Of a stretch of DNA of 42,851 nucleotides, positions 2,988-33,154 are shown in pieces; the first letter of the stretch is position 1; each line of letters starts with the position of its first letter. Both the position numbers and the translations under genes were made by a program. The DNA is from a virus (lineage: Duplodnaviria > Heunggongvirae > Uroviricota > Caudoviricetes). A model generated the notes under the pieces. That model saw nothing but the letters and a program-made list of their open reading frames with translations. It searched no databases and had not been told where the DNA came from. The stretch is taken from the IMG/VR virus record IMGVR_UViG_2875722834_000006; one strand, 5' to 3'.

Positions 2988-3581
2988 TTATGAATAATTG
3001 AAAATGATGTTCAGATGGGATGGGGCAATTTTGTTGATTGAACACTCCAGTTGTTTATTGCCCCACGATGCGAGCGGATCTCCGCAGTAGGACGCGCCAG
3101 CAAGCGAATACTTGATCGTTGTTTGTGGCGCATTTATCCGCCAGGTAAATGGCCACTCGTCACCGTTAAGCGCATCACCGCATACTGACATGCCACTCAT
3201 AGCGGGCCGGAACTGTGTGATAGTGATGGTATAACCAAGAGCTGCAGCCACCCGGATGTAATAATCGCGGTTCAGGCCGCCGGTGCTGATTAACTTTGCC
3301 ACCACGGCGCGCTGGCGATCGCTGACGCCACCGGATTCACCAATCGCACAATCATCTGGTAACCCCAGAGAGCTTTCCCATTCTGACAACATTACCGTCG
3401 CTGTAGGGGGAAAAGCACCAGTAATCAGGCTTTGCGCATCGTTGTCAGAACGCTGAAACGCGCTGCCCAGTGCCCGTAATACCGCAGCCTGTACCGTTCT
3501 TTGCGACCGGGGCCACGCCCTGCCCGTCGGTAGCAGCGCACCAAGCGCACCGGCATAATCATTTTTTGAAAAGAGGCTCAT
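2988..3581 (-). CDS. Tail protein, YmfQ / Mu gp48-like (baseplate or fibre attachment)
   Basis: 197-aa product with N-terminal ALLPTGRAW motif typical of this family; position between baseplate J and tail fibre. Confidence 0.6.
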   Translation of the reverse strand: MSLFSKNDYAGALGALLPTGRAWPRSQRTVQAAVLRALGSAFQRSDNDAQSLITGAFPPTATVMLSEWESSLGLPDDCAIGESGGVSDRQRAVVAKLISTGGLNRDYYIRVAAALGYTITITQFRPAMSGMSVCGDALNGDEWPFTWRINAPQTTIKYSLAGASYCGDPLASWGNKQLECSINKIAPSHLNIIFNYS

Positions 3582-5740: not shown

Positions 5741-6822
5741 GTATTGAATCCCGCCAGGTTCTGGTAGAAGGCATATGGCTGAACGGAGAATGCTTCAGGC
5801 GGCATCAGCGTCATGCGTGCATGGGTGCCGTAGTCATCGCGCATATAGGTGACTTCTGCCAGTAGCAATTCAGTCTTCGGCAACCGTAAGGTGGGAAGAT
5901 CAACGGGGATCAATGTGTTTGGTTCCCACAGTTTCCCGTCTTTATCCCGCCAGGAATCGATGGTTACCGAGAGCTGTTTTGAACGTCCGTACCGCCGGTT
6001 CATTTCCCAGTCGATCGCACTTTGTGCCTGTTGAGTAGCCATCAGGGTACTTTCCACAATCGATATATGTTTTCGGTACCGCATGCGGGCGGCCTCCGGA
6101 TCTCTCGCCGTTGCCAGAGTCACAGCGTCATAGGCCGTATCAGGCGAATACCCTGCAATTGGAGAAACGCTCATTGATACACCGACATAATCTGAAAACC
6201 TGTCAGCCATCGATTTGCGGTAGTATGCCTGCTCGACATTTACCCCTTCGGCTATCCCACTTGCCGCACGACGTGTTCCCACCCGGGTCAGTAACAGGTT
6301 TCCATCGGGCTGATCGTAGTAAAGCAGAGCAGACCATCTGGCCACCCGATCGATGACTTCTTGCGGAGACTCACCCCAGTTCAGAGTGAACTGGGGTACC
6401 TTCACAAGTTCATCAACATCCGTGGTTACGGTGATGCCGTAGTAGGATGCCAGGCGAGAAGCAATTTCAAGCGCATTACTGGCATTGATGACGTTGTTAG
6501 GCCACTCGGCTGAGCAATCCACCAGGTCCTGACATTTGCTCCTGCCCGTGGCGCGGACCTCATGGCGGGAGCGCGATAGTGCGGGTTCCCAGTCATCAAC
6601 ATATCCCGTCAGTGTCAGATCATCTCCGATACGAACTTCACAAGACATTCCCTCTTCAACGAGTTGACGATCTTCGTTGCCAGGGAAGTAATCCATTAGC
6701 CCAAGATCGAAATCAGAGGGAAAACGCTCAATACCCCGCGTTACCCGGACAGAATCCCACCCCTCGATGATTTTGCCGTCGACCGTCAAAGAAACAACAT
6801 CCAGATCGCTGTCTGCATTCAT
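5737..6822 (-). CDS. Tail protein, Mu P (gp44) / P2 gpD-like
   Basis: 361-aa product; conserved position after DNA circulation gene in Mu-type tail modules. Confidence 0.65.
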   Translation of the reverse strand: MNADSDLDVVSLTVDGKIIEGWDSVRVTRGIERFPSDFDLGLMDYFPGNEDRQLVEEGMSCEVRIGDDLTLTGYVDDWEPALSRSRHEVRATGRSKCQDLVDCSAEWPNNVINASNALEIASRLASYYGITVTTDVDELVKVPQFTLNWGESPQEVIDRVARWSALLYYDQPDGNLLLTRVGTRRAASGIAEGVNVEQAYYRKSMADRFSDYVGVSMSVSPIAGYSPDTAYDAVTLATARDPEAARMRYRKHISIVESTLMATQQAQSAIDWEMNRRYGRSKQLSVTIDSWRDKDGKLWEPNTLIPVDLPTLRLPKTELLLAEVTYMRDDYGTHARMTLMPPEAFSVQPYAFYQNLAGFNT

Positions 6823-8222
6823 TGCCTCAGTACCTTCATGGTTGTCGGCATAAACGCCGGATGCGGTACGCGCGCTTCCTGTACCAGTTCATCTGCACGG
6901 GTGGCATCCTGGTATAATCGGTTTGCCAGCGTCAGCGCCGGAAGCGGCTGAGCGGTAGTAACCTGCAGAAGCTCGCTCAGACCAGAAGCACGCTCACTCA
7001 TCGTAGAAAGGAATGCCGATCTGACGGCGAGAAGCGCGTTATACATATCATCGTCTGCGCGGTCTCCAGCCAGAACCAGCGCCGTATCAAGTTGCACAGA
7101 AACTCGTTGAGTTAACTCTTCTGCCTCGTCTGTACTGGCTGGTCTGGAGTCCGCAGCGGCACTGGTCATGGCACCAGTACATAGCACAACAATCAGCGTG
7201 TTCATGGTCGCCGAAATCGCTTTGCTGCTGTCGGACTGCTGGTACTCCGTGCTGATTGAATTAGCCAGTTTTTCCAGCGCTGTGATTCGGTCATTAACGC
7301 TGCCGGCGCTGTTAAGAATTGCGTTTACCACGTCGGCGACGCCCTGGACAAACTCATCAGGTGTGTTGGAGCTGCTAAGCTGGCTCGACCTGTCGGTAAC
7401 ATTTTTCCGGTCCATTACCGACTGGGCTGTTACCTTGTCAGCCAGTGCTCTCTCATCATCCACATCAGCAACTGACGATTTGCCAGCAACAGCAGAGGAA
7501 CTACCGCCCACAGAGCCTTTACTGTAACGTCCGTACCGGGTATTCCCGAACGTGGAGTTCAGGACATTGCTGAGATTCGTGACCTGACTGATGGTGCTGT
7601 CAACCATGTTAGTCCAGAACGTGACCGTGCCTCTGATGGTGTTTATAGCCTGTGTGACACCGCGGATTTCACTCTTAACTCTGGCAATCGTGCTCAGCAC
7701 AGCAGTGCTGACCAGTTTCAGATAGTTGGTTTTCACCGTGGCGCCTGCAACGGTACTGCCCGTGACAGCAAACACTTTAAGCCCTGATTCAATTGCCATC
7801 AGGGTAAATTCAAATACTCGCCCGTTCTCCATCGAACCGGAAATACGCAAACCATTCTCAGGGATGGAAACCGTTAATTCGCCCAGTGTCGGATGGACAA
7901 GCGTACCGCTACCTTTTTGTTCACAGGCTTCAATCAGTGACTGGCGCTGCGTGATAGCATCGCCGCCGCCGTAAACCTGGCTGTTCTGGATCAAGAAACC
8001 GCGAATAACAAATCGCCGTGTTGCCCGCCCGATATCCTCTATCCAGGCTGTATCACGGTAGGGATATTCATGTACCGCCTGGCGTCGGCCGTGGCTCCCT
8101 TCCTCAGCAACAATTGCAAATGGCACACCTCTGAATGAGCTGGGCCGTAACTGCCCCTGCCAGTCATCGCTGGTATCTCCCCCCAAAAGAGAAGTTATTG
8201 CGTCCTGGATAATTGACGGCAT
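6819..8222 (-). CDS. DNA circulation protein (Mu N / gp43-like)
   Basis: N-terminus MPSIIQDAITSLLGG...SSFRGVPFAIV typical of Mu N family; ATG at 8222 with GGAGG RBS. Confidence 0.7.
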   Translation of the reverse strand: MPSIIQDAITSLLGGDTSDDWQGQLRPSSFRGVPFAIVAEEGSHGRRQAVHEYPYRDTAWIEDIGRATRRFVIRGFLIQNSQVYGGGDAITQRQSLIEACEQKGSGTLVHPTLGELTVSIPENGLRISGSMENGRVFEFTLMAIESGLKVFAVTGSTVAGATVKTNYLKLVSTAVLSTIARVKSEIRGVTQAINTIRGTVTFWTNMVDSTISQVTNLSNVLNSTFGNTRYGRYSKGSVGGSSSAVAGKSSVADVDDERALADKVTAQSVMDRKNVTDRSSQLSSSNTPDEFVQGVADVVNAILNSAGSVNDRITALEKLANSISTEYQQSDSSKAISATMNTLIVVLCTGAMTSAAADSRPASTDEAEELTQRVSVQLDTALVLAGDRADDDMYNALLAVRSAFLSTMSERASGLSELLQVTTAQPLPALTLANRLYQDATRADELVQEARVPHPAFMPTTMKVLRQ

Positions 8223-22786: not shown

Positions 22787-23190
22787 TAGTCGAACATTTT
22801 ATCAAGTTGCTTAGCAAGAGCTCGGTTAAACAGCTCCTTCGAAACTGTCATCAGCGTGCCCATACTGGCATCTTTGAATCCGGTTTTTAATGTTGCCCAA
22901 ACCTCTTTGTTACGGAGAGCATCCAAGAAGTCATGCCCCATCGCGGTCAATCGCAAGGGCATTACAGCCCAGTGAGTCATTCCGTCTAAAGACTGAATAG
23001 CACCAAAGCCGGGCTCTCCATCACTCCTGATAATCAGCCCTCTATCCTCAAGCAAACGCATATGAAACACAAATGTGTCAGTTTCACAATTGAACCCTAA
23101 ATCATTTAATCGAATAATATCGGTATCAGGTGAATCCGATGCCTCGAAAGCCTCGAGCAAACCTTTAAGGTATTCTTGATCTATTTGCAT
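22786..23190 (-). CDS. Hypothetical protein (134 aa), low-GC cargo-like gene (possibly DUF2513-like)
   Basis: ORF with about 37-40% GC in sampled stretch versus about 55-60% in structural genes; own terminator. Confidence 0.5.
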   Translation of the reverse strand: MQIDQEYLKGLLEAFEASDSPDTDIIRLNDLGFNCETDTFVFHMRLLEDRGLIIRSDGEPGFGAIQSLDGMTHWAVMPLRLTAMGHDFLDALRNKEVWATLKTGFKDASMGTLMTVSKELFNRALAKQLDKMFD

Positions 23191-23222
23191 AACCCCTCCG
23201 TATGTAAAAGGTTAATTTAACA

Positions 23223-23684
23223 TCAATTTAAGCACTGCTCTTTGATGTATTCCTGCAAATATCCAACCTGTTTCGTCACTGTGACGATTCGCTCTCTGAG
23301 GGTGAAATAATCCCGTTCAGCGGAGTCAGTAAGTCGGGGGCCGGTAACATCGCCCAGGCCGCCGGTGCTGGTCGCTCCGTTCGCGGGACATCTGGCGTTG
23401 ACGTGCAGCCCACACTTGCCAGTGCGAACACAACGCTGCAAATCATCAAGCTGCTTTTTAGCATCAGCTAAGTCCTTCGTGTATTTGGCATCCAGCACCG
23501 CTGCATCACGCTGGCGGATCTGCATGTCTTTGATGGTGGCGTTCGCCTGGCTAAGATTCTTAATGGCTTTATCGCGCTGGTCTTTGTAGGTGATGGCGTT
23601 GCCGCGGTAGTGGTTAATCGCCCAGGCCATGGAAACCATCAGGCAGATAACGACAGCACAGATGATTGCTGTTAATCGGCTCAC
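23223..23684 (-). CDS. Rz: i-spanin Rz
   Basis: Aligns by eye with lambda Rz ([32 protein letters not shown]); GTG start at 23684 giving MSRLTAII. Confidence 0.8.
23276..23464 (-). CDS. Rz1: o-spanin Rz1 (lipoprotein) embedded in Rz in alternate frame
   Basis: Lipobox ASVGC, proline-rich, [11 protein letters not shown] identical to lambda Rz1 motif. Confidence 0.8.
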
Positions 23685-24220
23685 TAATCTAACCCCCAAC
23701 ACGCCAGCGCGCTTTCCTGGTCCCGTCTCTCAACCTGACCATAGCAGCCATTCTTCTGGCCTTTGGTTAGTCGGCAATCGCGGCCACCGTCTTTGATCCA
23801 CCAGCGGATTGCTTCACATGCCCCTTTACGATCACCGGCGTTGATGCGTTTATAAAAGGTAGAAGGGAAGCATTTACCAGGACCAATGTTGTACGGGCAA
23901 AATGAGGCAATCCCCGCTTTCTGCGGTTCGGTCAGTGGTACCTGGATATTGCGGTCGACCCAAGCCAGCGCCTTGTTCAGCTCGCTGGCGTTCACCTGAT
24001 TACATTTCTCTGGCGATAGCCTCATACCTGGTGTAACAGGCTTGCCGTCAACCGTGGTAGCTCCCCGGCAAATCGTCCAGATGCCGCTGCCATCTTTGTA
24101 CGCTGTAAGGCTGTTTCCCTCTTTCTCATTCAGAAACTGATCGAGAATGACGGATGCTGGCGCACCAGCAAGTACCAACCCCAGAACAGCAGCACTTAAT
24201 TTTGCTCTGGATCCCATCAC
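23684..24220 (-). CDS. Endolysin, lysozyme-type with N-terminal signal-anchor-release (SAR) segment
   Basis: Hydrophobic Gly/Ala-rich N-terminus followed by [20 protein letters not shown] catalytic motif. Confidence 0.8.
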
Positions 24221-24519
24221 TCACCTTCCTTTTGTAATGCCTCAACGACCACGCTTGCAGCCGCAGGACGTTCGTGAAGGGGTTTATCACCAACGCCTTT
24301 CAGGTAGTCATTGACCATTTTTGTTCGCTTCTCGTCCTCTCTACGCCTGCGGTGGGCATCCACGCGACCATTGACATAGGAGGCAAACGAGATAAGCAGA
24401 CCAGCGGCGCCAAAGAACATGAACACCATATCCTGAGTGGTAAAACCAATGGCTGACGCCAGAGCTGCTACCCACGCGAAGAACTGCGTGAAAATGTTCC
24501 CTGAATCATTCATTTTCAT
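24217..24519 (-). CDS. Holin (two predicted TMDs, MKM dual-start; pinholin-like)
   Basis: 100-aa ORF upstream of SAR endolysin with two hydrophobic helices and charged C-terminus. Confidence 0.7.
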   Translation of the reverse strand: MKMNDSGNIFTQFFAWVAALASAIGFTTQDMVFMFFGAAGLLISFASYVNGRVDAHRRRREDEKRTKMVNDYLKGVGDKPLHERPAAASVVVEALQKEGE

Positions 24520-24552
24520 GGTCTCTCACCTCGCTGTGTGCGGGTGTTATTG

Positions 24553-24580
24553 AGGTAATAAAAAAGGCCGCTTGAGCGAC
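24553..24580 (-). terminator. Terminator-like hairpin with U-tract between methyltransferase and holin genes
   Basis: GGUCGC/GCGGCC stem (one G-U pair) followed by TTTTTTATT on minus strand. Confidence 0.4.
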
Positions 24581-24587
24581 CTCACGT

Positions 24588-25640
24588 TTATTCCCCTGTT
24601 AACGCCCTTATTTCCCCCACCGTCTGGCTAAACCTGTCCTTCTCGAGTTCAACGCCGATAGCCTGGCGGCCAAGTTCCAGCGCGATTTTCACGGTCGAAC
24701 CGGACCCCATAAAGAAATCAGCCACCACATCACCAGGCTTACTGCTGGCGTTGATGATCTGCCGCAACATGTCAGCGGGTTTTTCGCATGGGTGTTTACC
24801 TGGGTAAAACTGAACGGGTTTATGTGTCCAGACGTCGGTATAAGGAACGGATACGGAAACAGAGAAATGCCGCCGAAGCGATTTGTACTCTTCGAGCAGC
24901 TCTGAATACTTGCGATTTAACGAATGCCACATAGCCACCAGCTGGTGGTGTGGTGTTGCCAGTTCGCCGTTCTGGTGCTTTTCGATGGCTACCTGCGTGA
25001 AAAGGGACTGAAGCTTCCGGTAGTCTGATTCATTCGGTAATTGCCACTGGCTACCGCTGAACCAGTGAGACACCATGTTCTTCTTTCCAGTCGCATCGGC
25101 TATTTGTTTTGAGGTTATGCCAAGCGCTTCACGTGCATCCCGGAAATAAGAAATTAGGGGAGTCATTACATGCTGCTTCAGCTCGCTTCCCTTCTCAGCG
25201 TACCCGTCGCTCTTTGGTTTATACGGCCCCTGGTAATGCTCAGCGAACAGGATGCGCTCTGTTGCAGGGAAGTAAGAGCGCAGGCTCTCTTTATTACAGC
25301 CATTCCAGCGGCCCGACGGTTTAGCCCAGATGATGTGGTTCAGGACGTTGAACCGCTCACGCATCATGATCTCAATGTCTGCCGCCAGACGGTGACCTGA
25401 GAAAAGATAAAGACTGCCGGCAGGTTTAAGCACTCGCCAGAATTGTGCGAGGCACATATCAAGCCAGCGAAGATAATCCTCATCCCCTTTCCATTGATTG
25501 TCCCAGCCGTTGGGTTTCACTTTGAAGTACGGCGGATCCGTGACTATCAGGTCAATGAAGTTATCAGGGAGAGTTGCGATGTATTGCAGGCTATCAGCGT
25601 TGACTAACTCAACACTGTTTATATTTACAGTATTTTTCAT
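24588..25640 (-). CDS. DNA N6-adenine (or N4-cytosine) methyltransferase, beta class
   Basis: DPPY motif near N-terminus (VTDPPYF) and AdoMet motif FxGxG near C-terminus (DFFMGSGST). Confidence 0.8.
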   Translation of the reverse strand: MKNTVNINSVELVNADSLQYIATLPDNFIDLIVTDPPYFKVKPNGWDNQWKGDEDYLRWLDMCLAQFWRVLKPAGSLYLFSGHRLAADIEIMMRERFNVLNHIIWAKPSGRWNGCNKESLRSYFPATERILFAEHYQGPYKPKSDGYAEKGSELKQHVMTPLISYFRDAREALGITSKQIADATGKKNMVSHWFSGSQWQLPNESDYRKLQSLFTQVAIEKHQNGELATPHHQLVAMWHSLNRKYSELLEEYKSLRRHFSVSVSVPYTDVWTHKPVQFYPGKHPCEKPADMLRQIINASSKPGDVVADFFMGSGSTVKIALELGRQAIGVELEKDRFSQTVGEIRALTGE

Positions 25641-25810
25641 AGATCCGTAAGCGTAACTCTGATAGGCTCACTATGCTTTTGCGCTAAAGCAGTGGGCCTT
25701 GGTTAGCTTGTGACCTGTAAGCATGAGCTGATGGTTGGTCGGGTGCTACAACACCCACCAGCCGCCCATTCCACAGCAAAACTCCTCCATATTGAAGGAA
25801 CGAAGGCGTA

Positions 25811-25850
25811 AAAAAGCCCTGATTTTCAGGTCAGGGCATTTTTAATAAAA
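25811..25850 (-). terminator. Intrinsic terminator hairpin (GCCCTGA...TCAGGGC) with T/A runs on both sides
   Basis: Stem 25816-25822/25831-25837; minus-strand U-tract directly after stop of 25859..26758. Confidence 0.6.
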
Positions 25851-25858
25851 TCTGAAAT

Positions 25859-26758
25859 TTACGCGTTTCCAGGAGGGACATGCCAGACTCTTCGGCCATC
25901 CTCATGGTTCTCGATAATCTTGGCTGCTGTACTGCCACCAAAAGTGTGCATATAGCTATGATGTATCGTTAACACAATATCTTGTAATGCCTGATCTGCT
26001 TCCATCGGTATGATTTTCAAACCAATTTGGCTAGCTTTATCACTGTGAATATGACGTGCATGAGCAAAAGTTGAACTGTGGTTATTCAGGCTTGAACAAA
26101 TAGCTTCAGCCTTTTGCTGGGCATCTGGATCCCCATCAAACATACCAGTAATTAGCCATTCACTGACAATTGTTGTTGCCCATTGGATTGCCTTTTCACA
26201 CTCACCAATGAACGTCGGATTGAGTTTAGACAGTGTAAATTGCCAATACGCAGCAGTCGCAGGGTTTTTAATAATATCTTGCATAGCCTTCTGCGCTTCT
26301 TCAATCACGCCATGTGCTGGCACGCCACCGATTTGGGGATCGAAAGGACCGATATTTGATTGTTTCCCCATGATGATTTCTTTTGCACAACAAGCCAACA
26401 TAGTCCCTGCTGACATAGATATCATGGGGACAAAAGCACGGATATCGTTACCGAACTTAGCTCTCAAGTAATAACCTATCGATTCTAAGGCGGCGATATC
26501 CCCACCAGGTGTATGCAAAATGAGATCAAGCCCCTTCGTGGCATCGAGCCCATGAACCGCTGTCATGAATCCATTTTTATCATCATCAGACATAGTGCAT
26601 AAATGCGAGCTATTCTGAAGGAACCCCGAGTAGTACGCAATGACGTTACGTCCGGTCATCTGCGACATCTCTTTGATATATTTGCTTCTTACTGTGTCTA
26701 GGGGGCTTTTTTGGGCGAGGACTGCAACCTCGCCCATAACATGATTCCAATTAGGCAT
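25859..26758 (-). CDS. Clp-fold serine peptidase (SDH / S49-S14-like family), cargo gene
   Basis: LILHTPGGDIAA and MISMSAGTMLA motifs resemble ClpP/SppA fold; low GC; separate from head protease. Confidence 0.55.
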   Translation of the reverse strand: MPNWNHVMGEVAVLAQKSPLDTVRSKYIKEMSQMTGRNVIAYYSGFLQNSSHLCTMSDDDKNGFMTAVHGLDATKGLDLILHTPGGDIAALESIGYYLRAKFGNDIRAFVPMISMSAGTMLACCAKEIIMGKQSNIGPFDPQIGGVPAHGVIEEAQKAMQDIIKNPATAAYWQFTLSKLNPTFIGECEKAIQWATTIVSEWLITGMFDGDPDAQQKAEAICSSLNNHSSTFAHARHIHSDKASQIGLKIIPMEADQALQDIVLTIHHSYMHTFGGSTAAKIIENHEDGRRVWHVPPGNA

Positions 26759-26772
26759 TGTTCATCTTATTG

Positions 26773-26982
26773 TTAGTATGAATACAGTTGGTACGATGCA
26801 TTTCCTTGTTGATTGTAATCAACATTTTCCAGGTGAGAACCTGTCGAATAAATCACACCTTTTTGCCCAGAACCAACTGATGAGGTACTCATTACTCTGC
26901 GACCAAAATCAGTTGCTGTTTCGTTTGGCAAAAATTCTGCGGGGGTGATACCAAAATCGTCATAAAGCTGGTTTATGTTCAT
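26773..26982 (-). CDS. Small hypothetical protein (69 aa), translationally adjacent to peptidase
   Basis: ATG at 26982 with GGAGAG RBS; 14-nt gap to peptidase start; low GC. Confidence 0.4.
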   Translation of the reverse strand: MNINQLYDDFGITPAEFLPNETATDFGRRVMSTSSVGSGQKGVIYSTGSHLENVDYNQQGNASYQLYSY

Positions 26983-27064
26983 GGCTGCGCTCTCCAACAA
27001 ACTACATGTAGTAAAAAAACAACTTCGGCACACAACATGTAGATTTCACTAAGGGATAGATACG

Positions 27065-27086
27065 AAAAAACCTCCCAAGTGGAGGT
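27065..27086 (-). terminator. Intrinsic terminator (CCTCC-CAAGT-GGAGG plus U6 on minus strand)
   Basis: Stem 27071-27075/27081-27085 followed by TTTTTT on minus strand. Confidence 0.65.
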
Positions 27087-27292
27087 CAAGATTGCTTTAG
27101 TTATGCGCTAAATATGGTCTGAACATACGTTATATGCAATCTTTTTTGCACAGATTAGTGGTGTTTCTCGGAGATTTCTTGACTTTTTTTGTTGTAAGTG
27201 CAGCTTAACAACAAATTCCTATGAATGTATAAACAGTATCTTTTTATGTTGTTATGGTCGCCGGGTAATCCCATCCACTTAGTACGTGAAAA

Positions 27293-27318
27293 TGAAAAAC
27301 CCGCTCGCTGGCGGGTTT
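27293..27318 (-). terminator. tR'-like intrinsic terminator downstream of Q-like gene
   Basis: Stem CCCGC/GCGGG (27300-27304/27311-27315) with U-tract on minus strand about 100 nt after Q stop. Confidence 0.55.
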
Positions 27319-27410
27319 ATATACTCATGGCAACATATCAAATTAGCTTTAAATATCGCTTATTTTGTTGCATTTTGCAAGCCTGATTGAAGACGTTAGT
27401 GAAATTTACT

Positions 27411-28103
27411 TCACATTTCTACCACTTTCGCTTCTTCATACTCTTCGTACCGCGCCAGGCTTTCACATAACGCCACGCTGTCCATTTCCACGAAAGCTGC
27501 TTTAAATGCTGTCCAGTGAGCAGCGTATACCCTTAGCCAAGTTGAACGCTCCACGCTCACCATGCGGGCCAGTGCAGCCCCCGCATACTCCTGGTACGTA
27601 TCGTTATTGCGTGATGCCGCAACTTCCTGGGCCGCGAGCCAGACCAACCCCACTAATTTTTTTGTGACTCTGTCTTGGAGCTTCTTACTCCCCTGCTGAT
27701 GCTGAAACTGTGCCCAAACGTACTGGCACATTAACGTCTGGTACCGGAAAGACAGGTCATACCCATAGCAATACCTCACCCATGCCTGCAAATGCTCCCC
27801 CAGACCATTCACCGAACGACGCCATGCTGAACAAGCGAACTCCGTATCCTTAATAGGCGGTAAAGGTCGACGACGGCTCCTTGTCTCAAGAACATAAAGT
27901 GGAGTGGCCAGCGTTTTTACAACCTTGGATCCACAACCTTCCCCACCCTCCATGATGATTTCAGGATGGTGCCGGGGGTATTTGTTCTTATCTGCTGGTG
28001 GATGCTCACTGAACGCCTGCAGCTGTCCTTTTGTCGATCCTGATAAATCCGCCAGCGCGCGGCGCAGTTCAATCCGTGTAAATTCCAGTTCTTGTAAATT
28101 CAT
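27411..28103 (-). CDS. Late-gene antiterminator Q-like protein
   Basis: Position immediately upstream of promoter/terminator region preceding lysis genes; family assignment from memory of Q-family prophage proteins, not verified. Confidence 0.45.
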   Translation of the reverse strand: MNLQELEFTRIELRRALADLSGSTKGQLQAFSEHPPADKNKYPRHHPEIIMEGGEGCGSKVVKTLATPLYVLETRSRRRPLPPIKDTEFACSAWRRSVNGLGEHLQAWVRYCYGYDLSFRYQTLMCQYVWAQFQHQQGSKKLQDRVTKKLVGLVWLAAQEVAASRNNDTYQEYAGAALARMVSVERSTWLRVYAAHWTAFKAAFVEMDSVALCESLARYEEYEEAKVVEM

Positions 28104-28124
28104 TATGCTCAGCGCTCCATACAA

Positions 28125-29186
28125 TTACGCTTTTGTTATTACGCCGATCGCCAGCGCTCGATTCATAAATCGGAATAGCAGCTCCAGCTGGGTACCGTGT
28201 TTTTTCTCGAACGCTGCAACATCAGCATGTAATTTGTCGTGACACTCTCTGCACAGAGGGATCACGAACAAATCGTGGGCTTTAGTGGCGGTACCGCCCA
28301 TGCCGTGACCAATGACATGGTGTGGATCATCCGCTGGCCGCCGGCAACCTTCACAGGGCTGGGTTTTAGCCCACCGGGTATAGTCCTCATTCACCCACCT
28401 GCGGTGTTTTGGGCGCAACATGAATGATTCAGGGGATTCAGGATCCGCATGCAGAGCCAGAACCTGTGGCTGGTCATAGGCCACTTCCTGATTTGTTCCA
28501 TGCTTTAAATGCGCAGCCGTGACCGCAGGGGTGACCTTCTTCTGCAAAATGTTTTTTGTCGGTGGCATCGGCACAATGTCACTTTCGCGATATACGGATA
28601 AAAACGGCTCATCCGGTAAGCGAAGCGCATGCTGGGCCATCCTTTCCGTGATTGCATCAGCAATGCCTGAGTAAACGGCCCACCAGCACAATTCACCGAG
28701 GGATAGTTCACGCTCGTTGTTGTAGCCAAGCGAAGACAGGATAGAACTGATCAGCCAGTTAATGAGATTACGCCGGGCCAGTTCTGCCAGCGCCGCGGTG
28801 GTTTGCTCGCGCAGCTGGTTATCGCAATGCCAACAGAGCAACATTGATCCAGGGGGATGTCGCATCGTTACCAGCTCATGATGGTGATAATTAGTGTGCG
28901 GGTACTGGCATTCCTTCACGTTACGCTCTAGCCAGGATTCCAACCCGGACAAACCGCCTGCTGCACGGATAACTCTCTCGTCGGTGAAGAATTCCTCGAG
29001 GGACTTATCTTCTGCCAGCGGCTGCCGGGCATCAGGGACGAGCCCCGACGGAAGCCCAGCCATGCTTTTTGGCTGAGGCTCCACCAGCACACGCCCCTGT
29101 TGAAACAAAGACATCAGTTCGCTACCCGGCTTTAACAGCACAAGCCCAAGGCGCGGAACAGTCTCGGCTGTAAACAGTCCTCTCAC
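28125..29186 (-). CDS. DUF968-like protein with C-terminal HNH-type Cys/His motif
   Basis: C-terminal HHVIGHGMGG...CRECHDKLH motif; GTG start overlapping upstream stop; typical location near Q in lambdoid prophages. Confidence 0.5.
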   Translation of the reverse strand: MRGLFTAETVPRLGLVLLKPGSELMSLFQQGRVLVEPQPKSMAGLPSGLVPDARQPLAEDKSLEEFFTDERVIRAAGGLSGLESWLERNVKECQYPHTNYHHHELVTMRHPPGSMLLCWHCDNQLREQTTAALAELARRNLINWLISSILSSLGYNNERELSLGELCWWAVYSGIADAITERMAQHALRLPDEPFLSVYRESDIVPMPPTKNILQKKVTPAVTAAHLKHGTNQEVAYDQPQVLALHADPESPESFMLRPKHRRWVNEDYTRWAKTQPCEGCRRPADDPHHVIGHGMGGTATKAHDLFVIPLCRECHDKLHADVAAFEKKHGTQLELLFRFMNRALAIGVITKA

Positions 29187-29889: not shown

Positions 29890-31827
29890 TCAGGCGGCTG
29901 CACCCGCCTTTTGATTTGCACATAATTCAGGAAGATTTGCTTCTACCAGCGCACGAGCGAACGGCGGCGGTACTGCGTTACCACAGCGCGCTACCTGCTT
30001 GTCTTTGGCGTAACGATTGCCGCGATAGTCCTGATCGATAACGTAGCCGTCAGGGAAGCCCTGCGCCTTATAAAGCTCATGCGGTTGCAGCATGCGCATT
30101 CCGATATCGACGATCTGGTACTTAACCCCCTCGATCGTCACCAGCCATTCATCCTCGCTATCACCGCAGTAGGTTTCGAGGAATGTCCGGACCTCGCCAA
30201 CGTGCTGGCCACCAGCGGTAATCGTCGGCATAGGTGTATCCATGGTCTGACCGTCGCGGCAGGTTCCGCGCAGCTTCACCAGGTGCGACGCAACTACCGC
30301 GTGGTGATCAACAGTAGTGACTGAGTGGGCAGGCTCATCCATACCAACACCCGGCCCCGTGTAATTCCCACCATAGTGCTTCGCCAGGAACGCGCTCACC
30401 GTTGCAAACTTATTACCACCAGCAGTGACCGTGCCGAGCGGGTTATTCAGTTGAAGAACACGCGGTTCTTGCCCTGGGCGTTCGCCGTACCCCATCTGGA
30501 TCAGTGTTGGAGTTACCAGCTGCGACTTACCGCCACCACCTGCAGTAATCGTCGCACTCGGTTCGTCAGCCCTGTGCCCAACACTGGCTCCAAACTGGCG
30601 GGCGATGACCGGCGCAACCACGCACGCGCGGGACTGCTTGAGGATTGTATGAGCGGGTTTATCCAGCGGGCGCGGCTTTGCCTGGTACTCACTGCCGCCA
30701 TTGCCAGCCAGGAACGGTGTCAGGGCGGCCTCAACTACGCCAAGCGCATGCCCATTCCCGCCCGGGCGCGCCGACGTACCAGCGGTGACAGTTGGTACCG
30801 GCTCGGTCACTGGCTGCCCGGTGGCCCCGGTGCGGAATTTAGTAAGATGCGGTACCGCCAGTGCGTAGCCATGCTTTTTAGTGATGGTCTGCAATGGCTC
30901 TAACAACGATTGCCCGCGGAAACAGTCATAACCTCCTTTCGTCGTGGTGTGGTTACACTTCACGATGAAAGGTGATGCGCTTTCGATAACAAAGCGCTGG
31001 ATGCCGCGCGCGATACGTTTGAGCGTATTTTCCGCCAGCGGCTTTTTGCGGTCGAAGATGGACCGGGCCGGGATATTCCAGTCAATGCACTCCGCCGCGG
31101 TACGCCATGGCGCCAGCTTGCCGCTTTGTACTTCCAGTGATTTTGGATCCCCATGAGTCGCTTCAGGCCAATGAATCTTGCGGCCGTCACAGCGCATGAC
31201 CATGAAGAAACGCTTTCTGATCGTCGGCGCGCCGTAGTCACATGCGCGCAGCTCCCGATAATCAACCTCATAACCAAGCCCGGCGATCAGCTGTTGCGCC
31301 TGCTGGCCGTGCGGCTCAATGGCAAGGAATTCACAAACCTCAGCCAGCGCAGGGTGATTCGCCGCGATCCCCGTCGACAGCATGCCGACAAATGCCTCGA
31401 ATGTTTCGCCAGCACGCTCAGGATCTGGGCGTAATTCTTCATCCAGCAGCGGGCCCCATGTCTTAAACTCTTCGACGTTCTCCAGCATCATGACGCGGGG
31501 ACGTACTGCCAGCGCCCAGCGCAGGACAATCCACGCCAGCCCGCGAATCTCTTTCTTAACCGGCTTAGCGCCCTTCGCCTTGGAAAAGTGGCGGCAGTCA
31601 GGGCTAAACCAGGCCAGACCGACAGGTTTACCGCTGGTGGCTGCGCTTGGGTCAACGTCAAACACCGACTCGCAATAATGCAGCGTGTCAGGGTGATTCG
31701 TCTTATGCATCGCAATAGCGTTTTCGTCGTGGTTGATAGCGATATCCACGCTACGCCCGATCGCCAGTTCAATGCCGGTACTCGCGCCGCCGCCACCAGC
31801 AAAGTTATCAACGATAATTTCACGCAT
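29890..31827 (-). CDS. DNA (cytosine-5)-methyltransferase with extended, internally repeated variable region
   Basis: Motif I FAGGGG, PC motif (SPDCRHFS), ENV (MLENVEEF), motif VIII (YGAPTIRKRFFMV), motif X (GNAVPPP); four T(I/V)TAGG-containing modules between VIII and IX. Confidence 0.85.
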   Translation of the reverse strand: MREIIVDNFAGGGGASTGIELAIGRSVDIAINHDENAIAMHKTNHPDTLHYCESVFDVDPSAATSGKPVGLAWFSPDCRHFSKAKGAKPVKKEIRGLAWIVLRWALAVRPRVMMLENVEEFKTWGPLLDEELRPDPERAGETFEAFVGMLSTGIAANHPALAEVCEFLAIEPHGQQAQQLIAGLGYEVDYRELRACDYGAPTIRKRFFMVMRCDGRKIHWPEATHGDPKSLEVQSGKLAPWRTAAECIDWNIPARSIFDRKKPLAENTLKRIARGIQRFVIESASPFIVKCNHTTTKGGYDCFRGQSLLEPLQTITKKHGYALAVPHLTKFRTGATGQPVTEPVPTVTAGTSARPGGNGHALGVVEAALTPFLAGNGGSEYQAKPRPLDKPAHTILKQSRACVVAPVIARQFGASVGHRADEPSATITAGGGGKSQLVTPTLIQMGYGERPGQEPRVLQLNNPLGTVTAGGNKFATVSAFLAKHYGGNYTGPGVGMDEPAHSVTTVDHHAVVASHLVKLRGTCRDGQTMDTPMPTITAGGQHVGEVRTFLETYCGDSEDEWLVTIEGVKYQIVDIGMRMLQPHELYKAQGFPDGYVIDQDYRGNRYAKDKQVARCGNAVPPPFARALVEANLPELCANQKAGAAA

Positions 31828-33154
31828 TGACGGCCCCCTGCATGCTGTTGAAGAGACCACCAGCGGTCGTGATAATTTCACTCGTCGGCATACGTTCGAG
31901 CCACAGCTGGTTGATATTGGCTTTCAGCTTGTTCTGCTGCGAAACAGGTAGAGCGTCAGCCCCTTCAATCTGGTTAAACACCAGTCCAACCTCAAGAGGC
32001 CAAACGCGCGATTCGTTTAACGCCTTGTCCTTTGATTCCTGCGTCTCACGGACATGGGCGCGGATCCCCCGAATATTTGACCATTTGGCTTTATCCAGGC
32101 TTTCCATGGTCGCGATGAATTCACTGTGGTTAATGCCGTATTCTTTCGCAGACTCAACGGCAACCGTGCGTAACCGCTCTGACATGTCTTGTTTCACGTC
32201 ATCGCTATCAAAGGGCAATGTTTCCAGCCATGCATTAACACCCACCAGGATGCTCTCGCTGATCAGCTTTTTCGCTCTGTCGATCGTCAGCGGTGAAACA
32301 TTGGTAAATTCAGGGTTTTCCAGAGAGTCGGCAGCCCAGGTATGACCAAACTTTGACTCGCTGAAGGTGTACTCGTCTTTCTTGCCGAACGCCGCGACAA
32401 CACAGGCCCAAGCCTCTACACCGCTGGTTTCCAGAATGGCTTTTTGGGTTAATGGCAGTTCTGCCTCTGATTTCTCCGGCACTACCTCAGCGTCCAGCTC
32501 CGGCGCCGCATCAGTTTGCGTTCTTCCCACGGCAAATTGGGCCAGCGACATCGCAGCACGGCCTTTGGCCTCCAGGTCGGTGCGGTTGATGTAACTGAAA
32601 CGCTCACCCCGCCATGTTTTGTCGAAGACCACGATAGCGCCAGCAAAAAATGCGCTGGTGGGCTGCTGCTTTTCGTCTTTCGGCACGAACCATGTAGGAA
32701 GATCGAAACCAATTCGGCCACGGATGAATGTGACGTGATCTGCCTCTACCGGCCACCACGTTTCACTCGTCGCAGACTTAATGAGAAAAACGTACCGACC
32801 ACCCTTTTCTCGCATGGCCATAGCGTGGTTAATGATGTGGGTCATTCCGGTAACGGCCTGCTTGTCGTGGTACTGAGAGCGGCTGTAAGGCGGGTTGCCA
32901 AACCCGGCACCACCGAGTTCTGCCAGCCGCTCTGACCAATCCTGCATCAGGGCATTATCTTCAGCCGTGTACCATGCTGGGCACTTCGCGTTGCTGTCGT
33001 CGGCAAAAAGGTCCAACACCAGAGGGCCGAACATCGCATTGATCCCCCAAAACAACAGATCCGGAGTGCGCCATTGATCACCGACCTCTTTCAACTCGTG
33101 TGCTGGTTTTGAACGGAGTTCAGCCAGTGCACGGCAGTATTTATTTTCCATCAT
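31820..33154 (-). CDS. Phage-type DNA N6-adenine methyltransferase (Dam family) with about 250-aa C-terminal extension of unknown function
   Basis: N-terminal DQWRTPDLLF and NPPYS motifs characteristic of phage Dam family; long uncharacterised C-terminal half. Confidence 0.7.
   Translation of the reverse strand: MMENKYCRALAELRSKPAHELKEVGDQWRTPDLLFWGINAMFGPLVLDLFADDSNAKCPAWYTAEDNALMQDWSERLAELGGAGFGNPPYSRSQYHDKQAVTGMTHIINHAMAMREKGGRYVFLIKSATSETWWPVEADHVTFIRGRIGFDLPTWFVPKDEKQQPTSAFFAGAIVVFDKTWRGERFSYINRTDLEAKGRAAMSLAQFAVGRTQTDAAPELDAEVVPEKSEAELPLTQKAILETSGVEAWACVVAAFGKKDEYTFSESKFGHTWAADSLENPEFTNVSPLTIDRAKKLISESILVGVNAWLETLPFDSDDVKQDMSERLRTVAVESAKEYGINHSEFIATMESLDKAKWSNIRGIRAHVRETQESKDKALNESRVWPLEVGLVFNQIEGADALPVSQQNKLKANINQLWLERMPTSEIITTAGGLFNSMQGAVNA

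Follow-up and report, generated by a model that had tools for sequence, protein, structure and literature searches.

M.EcoGII, carried by a prophage of Escherichia coli O104:H4, is a beta-class methyltransferase of 349 residues with a DPPY motif, a central target-recognition domain (TRD) and an FxGxG motif, and it methylates adenine regardless of context (PMC5778455). The same text places near relatives in phage 1720a-02 and other enterobacterial phages, and states that M.EcoGI and M.EcoGII leave no trace of methylation in the lysogen and are deleterious when expressed constitutively (PMC5778455). Another report describes M.EcoGII as a dimer, with a Rossmann core at residues 1-134 and 260-349 and a four-helix helix-turn-helix (HTH) TRD at 160-237 (PMC11551740). 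Comparative papers on Shiga toxin-producing E. coli draw a 'DNA methylase' between the antiterminator gene Q and tRNA/stx genes (PMC3491183, PMC8456039); earlier work has thus documented the Q–methylase–(stx)–holin layout, although these papers only name the methylase, make no link to M.EcoGII and describe no leader. Here we describe a gene of this family in the 42,851-nucleotide virus record IMGVR_UViG_2875722834_000006 (Caudoviricetes; the whole stretch is called the window below), together with a structured leader RNA directly upstream of it. The methylase is another copy of a characterised family that is sold as a reagent (EcoGII) and is ordinary by itself, and both its type and its position were already known; the new part is the leader.

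We consider it likely that the gene encodes an orphan, sequence-non-specific N6-adenine methyltransferase and stands first among the conserved genes in the Q-dependent late operon of a lambdoid prophage, where it would be silenced in the lysogen, would protect phage DNA during lytic growth and would be governed through its leader.

The methylase and its family

24588-25640, minus strand: M.EcoGII-family beta-class N6-adenine DNA methyltransferase, 350 aa, ATG start; Rossmann core at residues 1-135 and 260-350, HTH target-recognition insert at about 146-253

The original prediction, made from the letters of the window alone, had placed a 350-residue methyltransferase at 24553-25640. The open reading frame (ORF) is real, although its location on the minus strand had been missed and its lower coordinate is 24588 rather than 24553; the 35 nt added by the earlier coordinate contain the intrinsic terminator downstream of the gene (24583-24564). 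The terminators on both sides of the gene and its structured leader had also gone unnoticed. The beta-class motif order had been read correctly, with D35-P36-P37-Y38 standing ahead of F310-M-G312-S-G314 (FxGxG). The Pfam profile N6_N4_Mtase (PF01555) matches the protein at 146.5 bits against a cut-off of 26.7 (E = 1.5e-42), and DNA-methyltransferase families of PHROG are matched as well. A prophage in E. coli NZ_CM174221.1 matches the window at 100% identity, and its copy of the gene is annotated as 'DNA methyltransferase' (WP_001515595.1).

By sequence, the closest solved structures are M.BceJIV, M.RsrI, M.MboIIA and CcrM, all of the beta class, and the matches cover only the N- and C-terminal thirds, leaving residues ~115-280 unmatched. 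An AlphaFold2 model built from 76 homologues (predicted local distance difference test score 88.9, predicted TM score 0.76) has a Rossmann core split by a helical insert at 146-253, with helices at 146-173, 177-184, 190-194, 204-223 and 234-253, and a weak HTH_3 profile match falls at residues 167-197. Foldseek searches with this model return CcrM, M.BceJIV, RsrI and MboIIA (probability 1.00, E ~1e-16 to 1e-14, TM score 0.75-0.78 on the target). Model and search together show that the S-adenosylmethionine-binding Rossmann fold, whose loss would have spoken against a methyltransferase, is present. The Rossmann core and motif order are common to the window enzyme and M.BceJIV (8URK), CcrM (6PBD), M.RsrI (1EG2) and M.MboIIA (1G60), but these four are only 18-22% identical to it, are site-specific and are without the ~110-residue four-helix insert.

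The agreement with M.EcoGII is much closer. The window protein is identical to it at 273 of 348 positions (78%), over the full length and with the target-recognition insert included, and is 85% identical to the reconstructed ancestor Anc289, the sequences of M.EcoGII (PMC11551740, Table S1) and of the ancestors having been machine-read from PDF with a few errors in them. The published domain limits agree with the AlphaFold2 model of the window protein. Because of these identities and the matching domain limits, we file the gene in the M.EcoGII family. Like M.EcoGII and M.EcoGI, its product is a prophage-borne beta-class enzyme of 349-350 residues with an N-terminal DPPY motif, a central helical HTH TRD and a C-terminal FxGxG motif; the difference from M.EcoGII lies in 22% of its residues. 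The family is large, with 2909 clusters (at 90% identity) found at E<=1e-5.

Sequence comparison had been proposed as the means of assigning specificity, and it leads to a family that acts on any adenine and recognises no site. Anc289 is active on DNA and RNA, and the experimentally tested ancestors that bracket the window protein all retain context-independent activity. On the precedent of these 78-85% identical enzymes, the window enzyme is predicted with high confidence to methylate adenine whatever its context.

One database homologue, P0126, resembles translated DNA in which C has been converted to T: L, V, C/W and Y systematically take the places of P, A, R and H. Bisulfite-type or damaged reads in the source assembly are the probable cause of this artefact.

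A structured leader RNA ahead of the methylase

In an alignment of the upstream regions of five phages, ~140 nt ahead of the ATG are conserved and the sequence further upstream is not, a pattern that is repeated in 80 loci whose proteins are 64-94% identical. RNAalifold together with manual inspection gives a consensus of two adjacent irregular hairpin domains, which in the window take the following form:

25641-25775, minus strand: structured leader RNA of ~135 nt with two domains, located by covariance model directly ahead of the methylase
25775-25709, minus strand: leader domain 1, with P0 (UGUGG:UCACA), P1 (AUGGG:CUCAU) and the P2 hairpin at 25763-25733
25708-25650, minus strand: leader domain 2, with P3, P4 and the P5 hairpin at 25690-25675, which has a palindromic apex
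3' end of the leader, minus strand: 9-nt spacer with GGAUC, then AUG

Across the alignment, domain 1 consists of P0 (UGUGR:UCACA), P1 (AUGGG:CUCAU or CCCGU) and a P2 hairpin of 11-13 bp, and domain 2 of P3 (AGCG:CGCU), P4 (GGC/CACU) and the hairpin P5. In a MAFFT alignment of 37 sequences, 90% of the cells pair, compared with 33-46% when the pairing is slid, and 15 pairs have changed on both sides; none of 500 shuffles (0/500) reached any of the pairing measures. When 64 sequences were realigned to the covariance model, 94% of cells were paired, against 32-46% in slid controls, with 17 compensatory pairs. The variation in P0 and P1 is limited to A-U/G-U and G-U/G-C exchanges, as would suit RNA rather than duplex DNA. 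Leader identity is 78%, close to the 79% at codon positions 1+2 and far above the 33% (saturated) at four-fold degenerate sites, and many of its unpaired positions are invariant. Every variant of P5 has a DNA palindrome at its apex even as the sequence changes (GCGC, GTGCAC, AACGTT), and this apex could serve loop-loop (kissing-loop) dimerisation or be a dyad binding site or operator.

Other accounts of the conserved sequence were tried and rejected. A promoter, with TGTGnAAAT as an extended -10 element, is contradicted by the pairing of these bases with UCACA in P0, by their wobble-consistent variation and by their varying spacing. A conserved upstream ORF is likewise set aside; ATGGGCGGC... 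opens a frame that stops at codon 8 in the window and varies in length elsewhere. On inspection of the alignment, neither the alternative pairing GCUCA:UGAGC nor pairing of the ribosome-binding site with AUCAG is supported by covariation, and RNAalifold finds no conserved structure across the start codon. The phage small RNAs AgvB, AsxR and EcOnc, described by Tree et al., map elsewhere, and the leader has no Rfam match. Rfam 15 returned nothing at E<=1 across 23000-28500, and at E<=10 across 25600-25860 only terminator-type or chance matches far below gathering scores.

The leader is tied to one gene family. The covariance model (R1) has a single significant match in the window (169 bits, E = 1e-32), ahead of the late methylase, and none upstream of the two early-region methyltransferases. 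Among the 82 loci collected by their methylase, 61 have one strong match immediately upstream of the gene; three Photorhabdus loci give weak matches, and in the upstream alignment Xenorhabdus and Photorhabdus seem to carry a shorter variant of the leader and two loci seem to have none. Searches that started from the motif gave the same association. In viral contigs searched with the motif only, all 116 informative hits had a methylase start 72-73 nt downstream, and a looser domain-1 motif yielded 66 new loci, three of which are true leaders by the covariance model, all upstream of a methylase, the rest being mostly chance hits. Altogether, 119 of 119 motif-first hits lie directly upstream of a member of the methylase family.

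Among 5426 complete E. coli genomes, 2635 (about half) contain the leader, with 3759 copies in all and at most eight per genome, and the RefSeq rows of 12 sampled E. coli hits have nothing annotated beneath it. It is also found ahead of homologues that are only 50-60% identical, in Klebsiella phage phiKO2 (79 bits), Vibrio phage VHML (52 bits) and Aeromonas phage phiARM81ld (36 bits); in phiKO2 its start follows directly on a late promoter and terminator that are annotated there. Many Stx phages have the leader on the late transcript that also carries the toxin genes, a little way upstream of them. We found no description of the leader in the literature searched: the accessible portions of the M.EcoGII papers make no mention of it, and a full-text search with strings of its sequence turned up an unrelated primer and nothing else. 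Judged by these tools, the leader is an undescribed element, strongly supported by its covariation, conservation and exclusive linkage.

The start sites of the family are unusual as well. A core Shine-Dalgarno sequence precedes only 1 of 99 non-redundant methylase starts, compared with 119 of 134 downstream genes, mostly holins. GATC stands at -5..-2 in 84 of the 99; UGAUC is complementary to the 3' end of 16S rRNA. The first methylase codons (ACU GUx ... AGU) are conserved at the nucleotide level. The methylase family thus appears to be under translational control, and the leader probably acts in cis on the translation or stability of the methylase message.

In phage Mu, mom is a late, toxic DNA-modification gene whose mRNA contains a hairpin that the zinc-finger protein Com remodels for translation. 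The methylase locus resembles mom/com in that a presumably late, host-toxic, anti-restriction DNA-modification gene stands behind a structured mRNA region, and a distant member of the family, that of phiARM81ld, has a Com-like ORF. This ORF encodes a Zn-ribbon protein like Mu Com (PF10122, 27.9 bits, above the cut-off; positions 2362-2577 of its locus), lies between leader and methylase and overlaps the methylase start, at which a GGAG is buried in a hairpin, CUCCGAG...CUCGGAG. The systems differ in chemistry (N6-methylation versus the Mom adenine modification) and in the RNA (a two-domain leader of ~135 nt versus a single inhibitory hairpin), and transcriptional control by Dam, OxyR and C is known from Mu. 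Since a com gene is absent from the window and present only in the Aeromonas relative, the likeness to Mu is one of function and not of membership.

The Q-to-lysis interval in the window and its relatives

In the direction of transcription, the interval around the methylase and its leader contains:

27411-28103, minus strand: antiterminator Q, regulator of the late operon (PF06323 Phage_antiter_Q, E = 1.5e-40; RefSeq 'bacteriophage antitermination protein Q')
27352-27380, minus strand: candidate late promoter pR', TTGCAA-17 nt-GATATT, read by eye just past the Q stop codon
27297-27318, minus strand: tR'-like intrinsic terminator downstream of Q, 8-bp stem with 5 G-C pairs, then a T run
27069-27087, minus strand: second intrinsic terminator of the late leader region, from the terminator scan
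26773-26982, minus strand: 69-aa ORF (phrog_25714)
25859-26758, minus strand: SDH Clp-fold serine protease (PF01972, phrog_11747)
25816-25837, both strands: bidirectional terminator closing the SDH-protease insert, from the terminator scan
25781-25801, minus strand: G+C-rich hairpin and U-rich tail that mark the methylase module's 5' edge, from the terminator scan and alignments
24564-24583, minus strand: intrinsic terminator between methylase and holin, 8-bp stem, then TTTTTATT
24217-24519, minus strand: holin, the first lysis gene (phrog_1350, E = 2.5e-24)

The earlier placement of the methylase inside the late operon and directly upstream of the holin is borne out by this order of Q, terminators, methylase, terminator and holin; the holin is the next gene in the direction of transcription, with only the terminator in between, and is followed by lysozyme (PF00959 Phage_lysozyme), Rz/Rz1 and morphogenesis genes. 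A consensus scan found no sigma-70-like promoter on the minus strand between protease and methylase (25641-25860). The terminator behind the methylase is found in 97 of 173 relatives, against 4 of 173 after shuffling, and is annotated likewise in SfV, Ayreon and phiKO2. The hairpin at 25781-25801 is variable in sequence and kept in position; strict terminator criteria are satisfied in 57 of 168 relatives, and in phiKO2 the hairpin at the same position is an annotated terminator just past the putative late promoter. Terminator-like sites are enriched across 24564-27318 on the minus strand, with 15 found against 4.4 expected in the 4.7 kb from Q to holin, and at least five stand in series on the late-transcript strand ahead of the holin.

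To place this layout among its relatives, we oriented 179 related loci (one genome per species, viral contigs and phage records) and clustered their flanking ORFs, annotating neighbours through representatives of the commonest clusters, which covers ~170 loci. The predicted orphan status of the methylase is upheld: there is no endonuclease next to it in the window, where holin and protease flank it, and no nuclease among these representatives. A search for a restriction-modification partner thus gave none, in the window or in the commonest annotated neighbour clusters.

Downstream of the methylase, the cluster representatives comprise holins from at least five Pfam families, with lysozyme next. 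Upstream, a 64-residue winged-helix ORF (SfV orf47, phrog_331) is present in 107 of 170 loci by ORF clustering and, by tblastn, in 56 of the first 85 loci, and further out are Q proteins, which belong to three or four unrelated families. The methylase module thus keeps its place between Q and the lysis genes whatever the families of the Q and holin around it. SfV, phiP27, Ayreon, Stx2a_WGPS2, 1720a-02 and phiKO2 share with the window the succession of Q, terminators, methylase, terminator and holin, and the same slot is occupied in SfV (orf48), phiP27 (L24), cdtI, mEp460, Ayreon, many Stx2a and Stx2c phages, 1720a-02 and the N15-like phiKO2. SfV orf48 and phiP27 L24 are of the same family and position, with 78-82% identity to the window protein, and 1720a-02, the phage cited with M.EcoGII, has its family member in the same Q, small ORF, methylase layout. 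In relatives, toxin genes (stx2, LT-IIb) and tRNAs are inserted just past the methylase.

The window departs from this layout upstream of the leader, where the winged-helix ORF is absent and an SDH-protease insert stands in its place. In SfV (orf47, positions 3157-3351 of its locus) and phiP27 (L23, 3153-3350), the winged-helix ORF lies just upstream of the leader and has a weak DprA_WH/TrmB match; the stop codon of SfV orf47 falls inside the pre-leader hairpin, so that translation of orf47 could affect this hairpin. The insert of the window (25816-27033, minus strand) lies between the tR' region and the methylase module, consists of the 69-aa ORF and the protease with terminators at both ends, contains a promoter-like site (26839-26812) and fills the slot that the winged-helix ORF holds in two thirds of relatives. 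Most other E. coli prophages cease to be identical to the window at ~25820, and the protease insert is probably a moron (a gene for lysogenic conversion). The 69-aa ORF was considered as a counterpart of the winged-helix ORF and rejected, as the two have no similarity.

Two side observations concern the relatives. A protein with a Tad2-like (anti-Thoeris) domain lies directly past the methylase and before the lysis genes at a Xenorhabdus locus (6200-7063) and six similar ones. Contigs titled as a Geobacteraceae metagenome-assembled genome, Vagococcus, Chryseobacterium, Collinsella and Pseudomonas lundensis carry an enterobacterial-type module (64-94% protein identity), which is likely to reflect mis-binning or contamination.

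The count of three methyltransferases in this genome is also correct, as both members of the early pair are real:

29890-31827, minus strand: C5-cytosine methyltransferase, early region (PF00145, E = 1.9e-20)
31820-33154, minus strand: Dam-family N6-adenine methyltransferase, early region (PF05869, E = 1.7e-42)

These two genes, both unusually long, have 8 nt in common (31820-31827). The C5 enzyme has 645 residues with only partial PF00145 coverage, the Dam-family enzyme has 444 with ~240 unmatched C-terminal residues, and both may have extra fused domains.

How the module may work, and the alternatives

In the lysogen, transcripts from pR' would end at tR', and at least three more terminators or hairpins lie ahead of the methylase and one behind it. 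With terminators in such series, only Q-modified, terminator-resistant RNA polymerase should reach the gene, and the toxic methylase and the lysis genes behind it would be kept silent until induction. That the enzyme most likely methylates every adenine would explain why it has to stay behind several terminators. During lytic growth, the adenines of replicating phage DNA would be methylated in any context, and packaged genomes would then resist the many restriction enzymes that are blocked by N6-methyladenine (m6A); this protection of progeny DNA is something that we infer, as the literature does. The lack of a neighbouring endonuclease, in the window and among the cluster representatives of the relatives, supports an orphan, late, anti-restriction gene. 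On an mRNA with its ~135-nt leader and no Shine-Dalgarno sequence, the leader would most likely set or gate methylase translation or message stability, following the control logic of Mu com/mom, in which a toxic late DNA-modification gene is governed through RNA structure.

Several points weigh against this reading. Non-specific activity is extrapolated from enzymes that are 78-85% identical; the candidate pR' is weak, falling below the threshold of a consensus promoter scan, and an internal promoter might yet express the methylase in the lysogen. For the leader, simple occlusion of the start or ribosome-binding site is not evident, because the stretch from -9 to the AUG is unpaired in the consensus fold, and the window has neither the winged-helix ORF nor a Com-like ORF that could act on it.

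More tentatively, and with slightly less than even confidence, we propose that the leader is a new class of cis-regulatory RNA dedicated to the M.EcoGII family, a sensor that would switch the translation of a toxic enzyme in response to a signal. The methylase itself (possibly by placing m6A on the leader), a phage winged-helix or Com-type protein, or a metabolite such as S-adenosylmethionine (SAM) or S-adenosylhomocysteine (SAH) could be that signal, and the RNA may dimerise through the P5 apex.

The leader might instead have a role other than translational regulation, as a riboswitch (for example for SAM/SAH), a processed trans-acting RNA, a P5-dimerising RNA or in part a DNA operator for a dimeric protein. 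We regard this as a serious minority option. The many invariant unpaired positions would suit it, as would a P5 apex that stays palindromic through sequence change, the frequent company of the winged-helix ORF, and the phiARM81ld leader, which precedes com and not the methylase itself. It accounts poorly for the strict linkage to a single gene family, with a constant spacing of 72-73 nt; the G-U and one-sided changes in P0, P1 and P2 fit pairing in RNA, not DNA, and the leader has no terminator or obvious expression platform and matched no known riboswitch.

Returning to the enzyme, a site-specific orphan methyltransferase, with a recognition sequence of its own and guarding against one cognate restriction system, is unlikely. 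Its nearest solved relatives (M.BceJIV, RsrI, CcrM and MboIIA) are all site-specific, and 22% of its residues differ from M.EcoGII; yet the target-recognition insert, the most family-specific part, is highly conserved with M.EcoGII, the tested ancestors on either side of the window protein keep context-independent activity, and the nearest known site-specific relative, M.PflMI, is only ~27% identical to M.EcoGII.

Still less probable is a lysogenic-conversion moron, expressed from its own promoter in the prophage as a host epigenetic regulator or as an m6A methyltransferase of RNA (rRNA or mRNA). Terminators bracket the gene in moron-like fashion, enzymes of the M.EcoGII family methylate RNA too, and another 'DNA methylase' of Stx phages proved to be a 16S rRNA methyltransferase (PMC10810198). 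That rRNA enzyme, however, belongs to a different family, being an MT-A70 DPPW protein with a partner subunit, which rules out a prophage rRNA methyltransferase of this Koudelka type. There is also no conserved upstream promoter, because the conserved sequence begins with the transcribed RNA stems; M.EcoGI and M.EcoGII leave no methylation in lysogens and prove toxic when expressed (PMC5778455), and M.EcoGII is ~100-fold less active on RNA than on DNA (PMC11551740, Table S3).

A restriction-modification system to which the gene would contribute the methylase, with the nuclease nearby or lost, is highly improbable, as only the general rule that N6_N4_Mtase genes often belong to such systems speaks for it, and the gene neighbours a holin and a protease in the window and, across ~170 loci, holins, lysozyme, tRNAs/stx, the winged-helix ORF and Q, with no nuclease among the cluster representatives.

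The question of specificity can be answered without experiment, every adenine being most likely methylated, and through the leader it becomes possible to test how a toxic methylase that ignores sequence context is controlled by phages. The leader may also matter for heterologous expression of EcoGII-type enzymes. As a defined RNA element in the late transcript of Stx phages, it could affect expression of the toxin operon, and its range takes in about half of complete E. coli genomes as well as phages of Klebsiella, Vibrio and Aeromonas.

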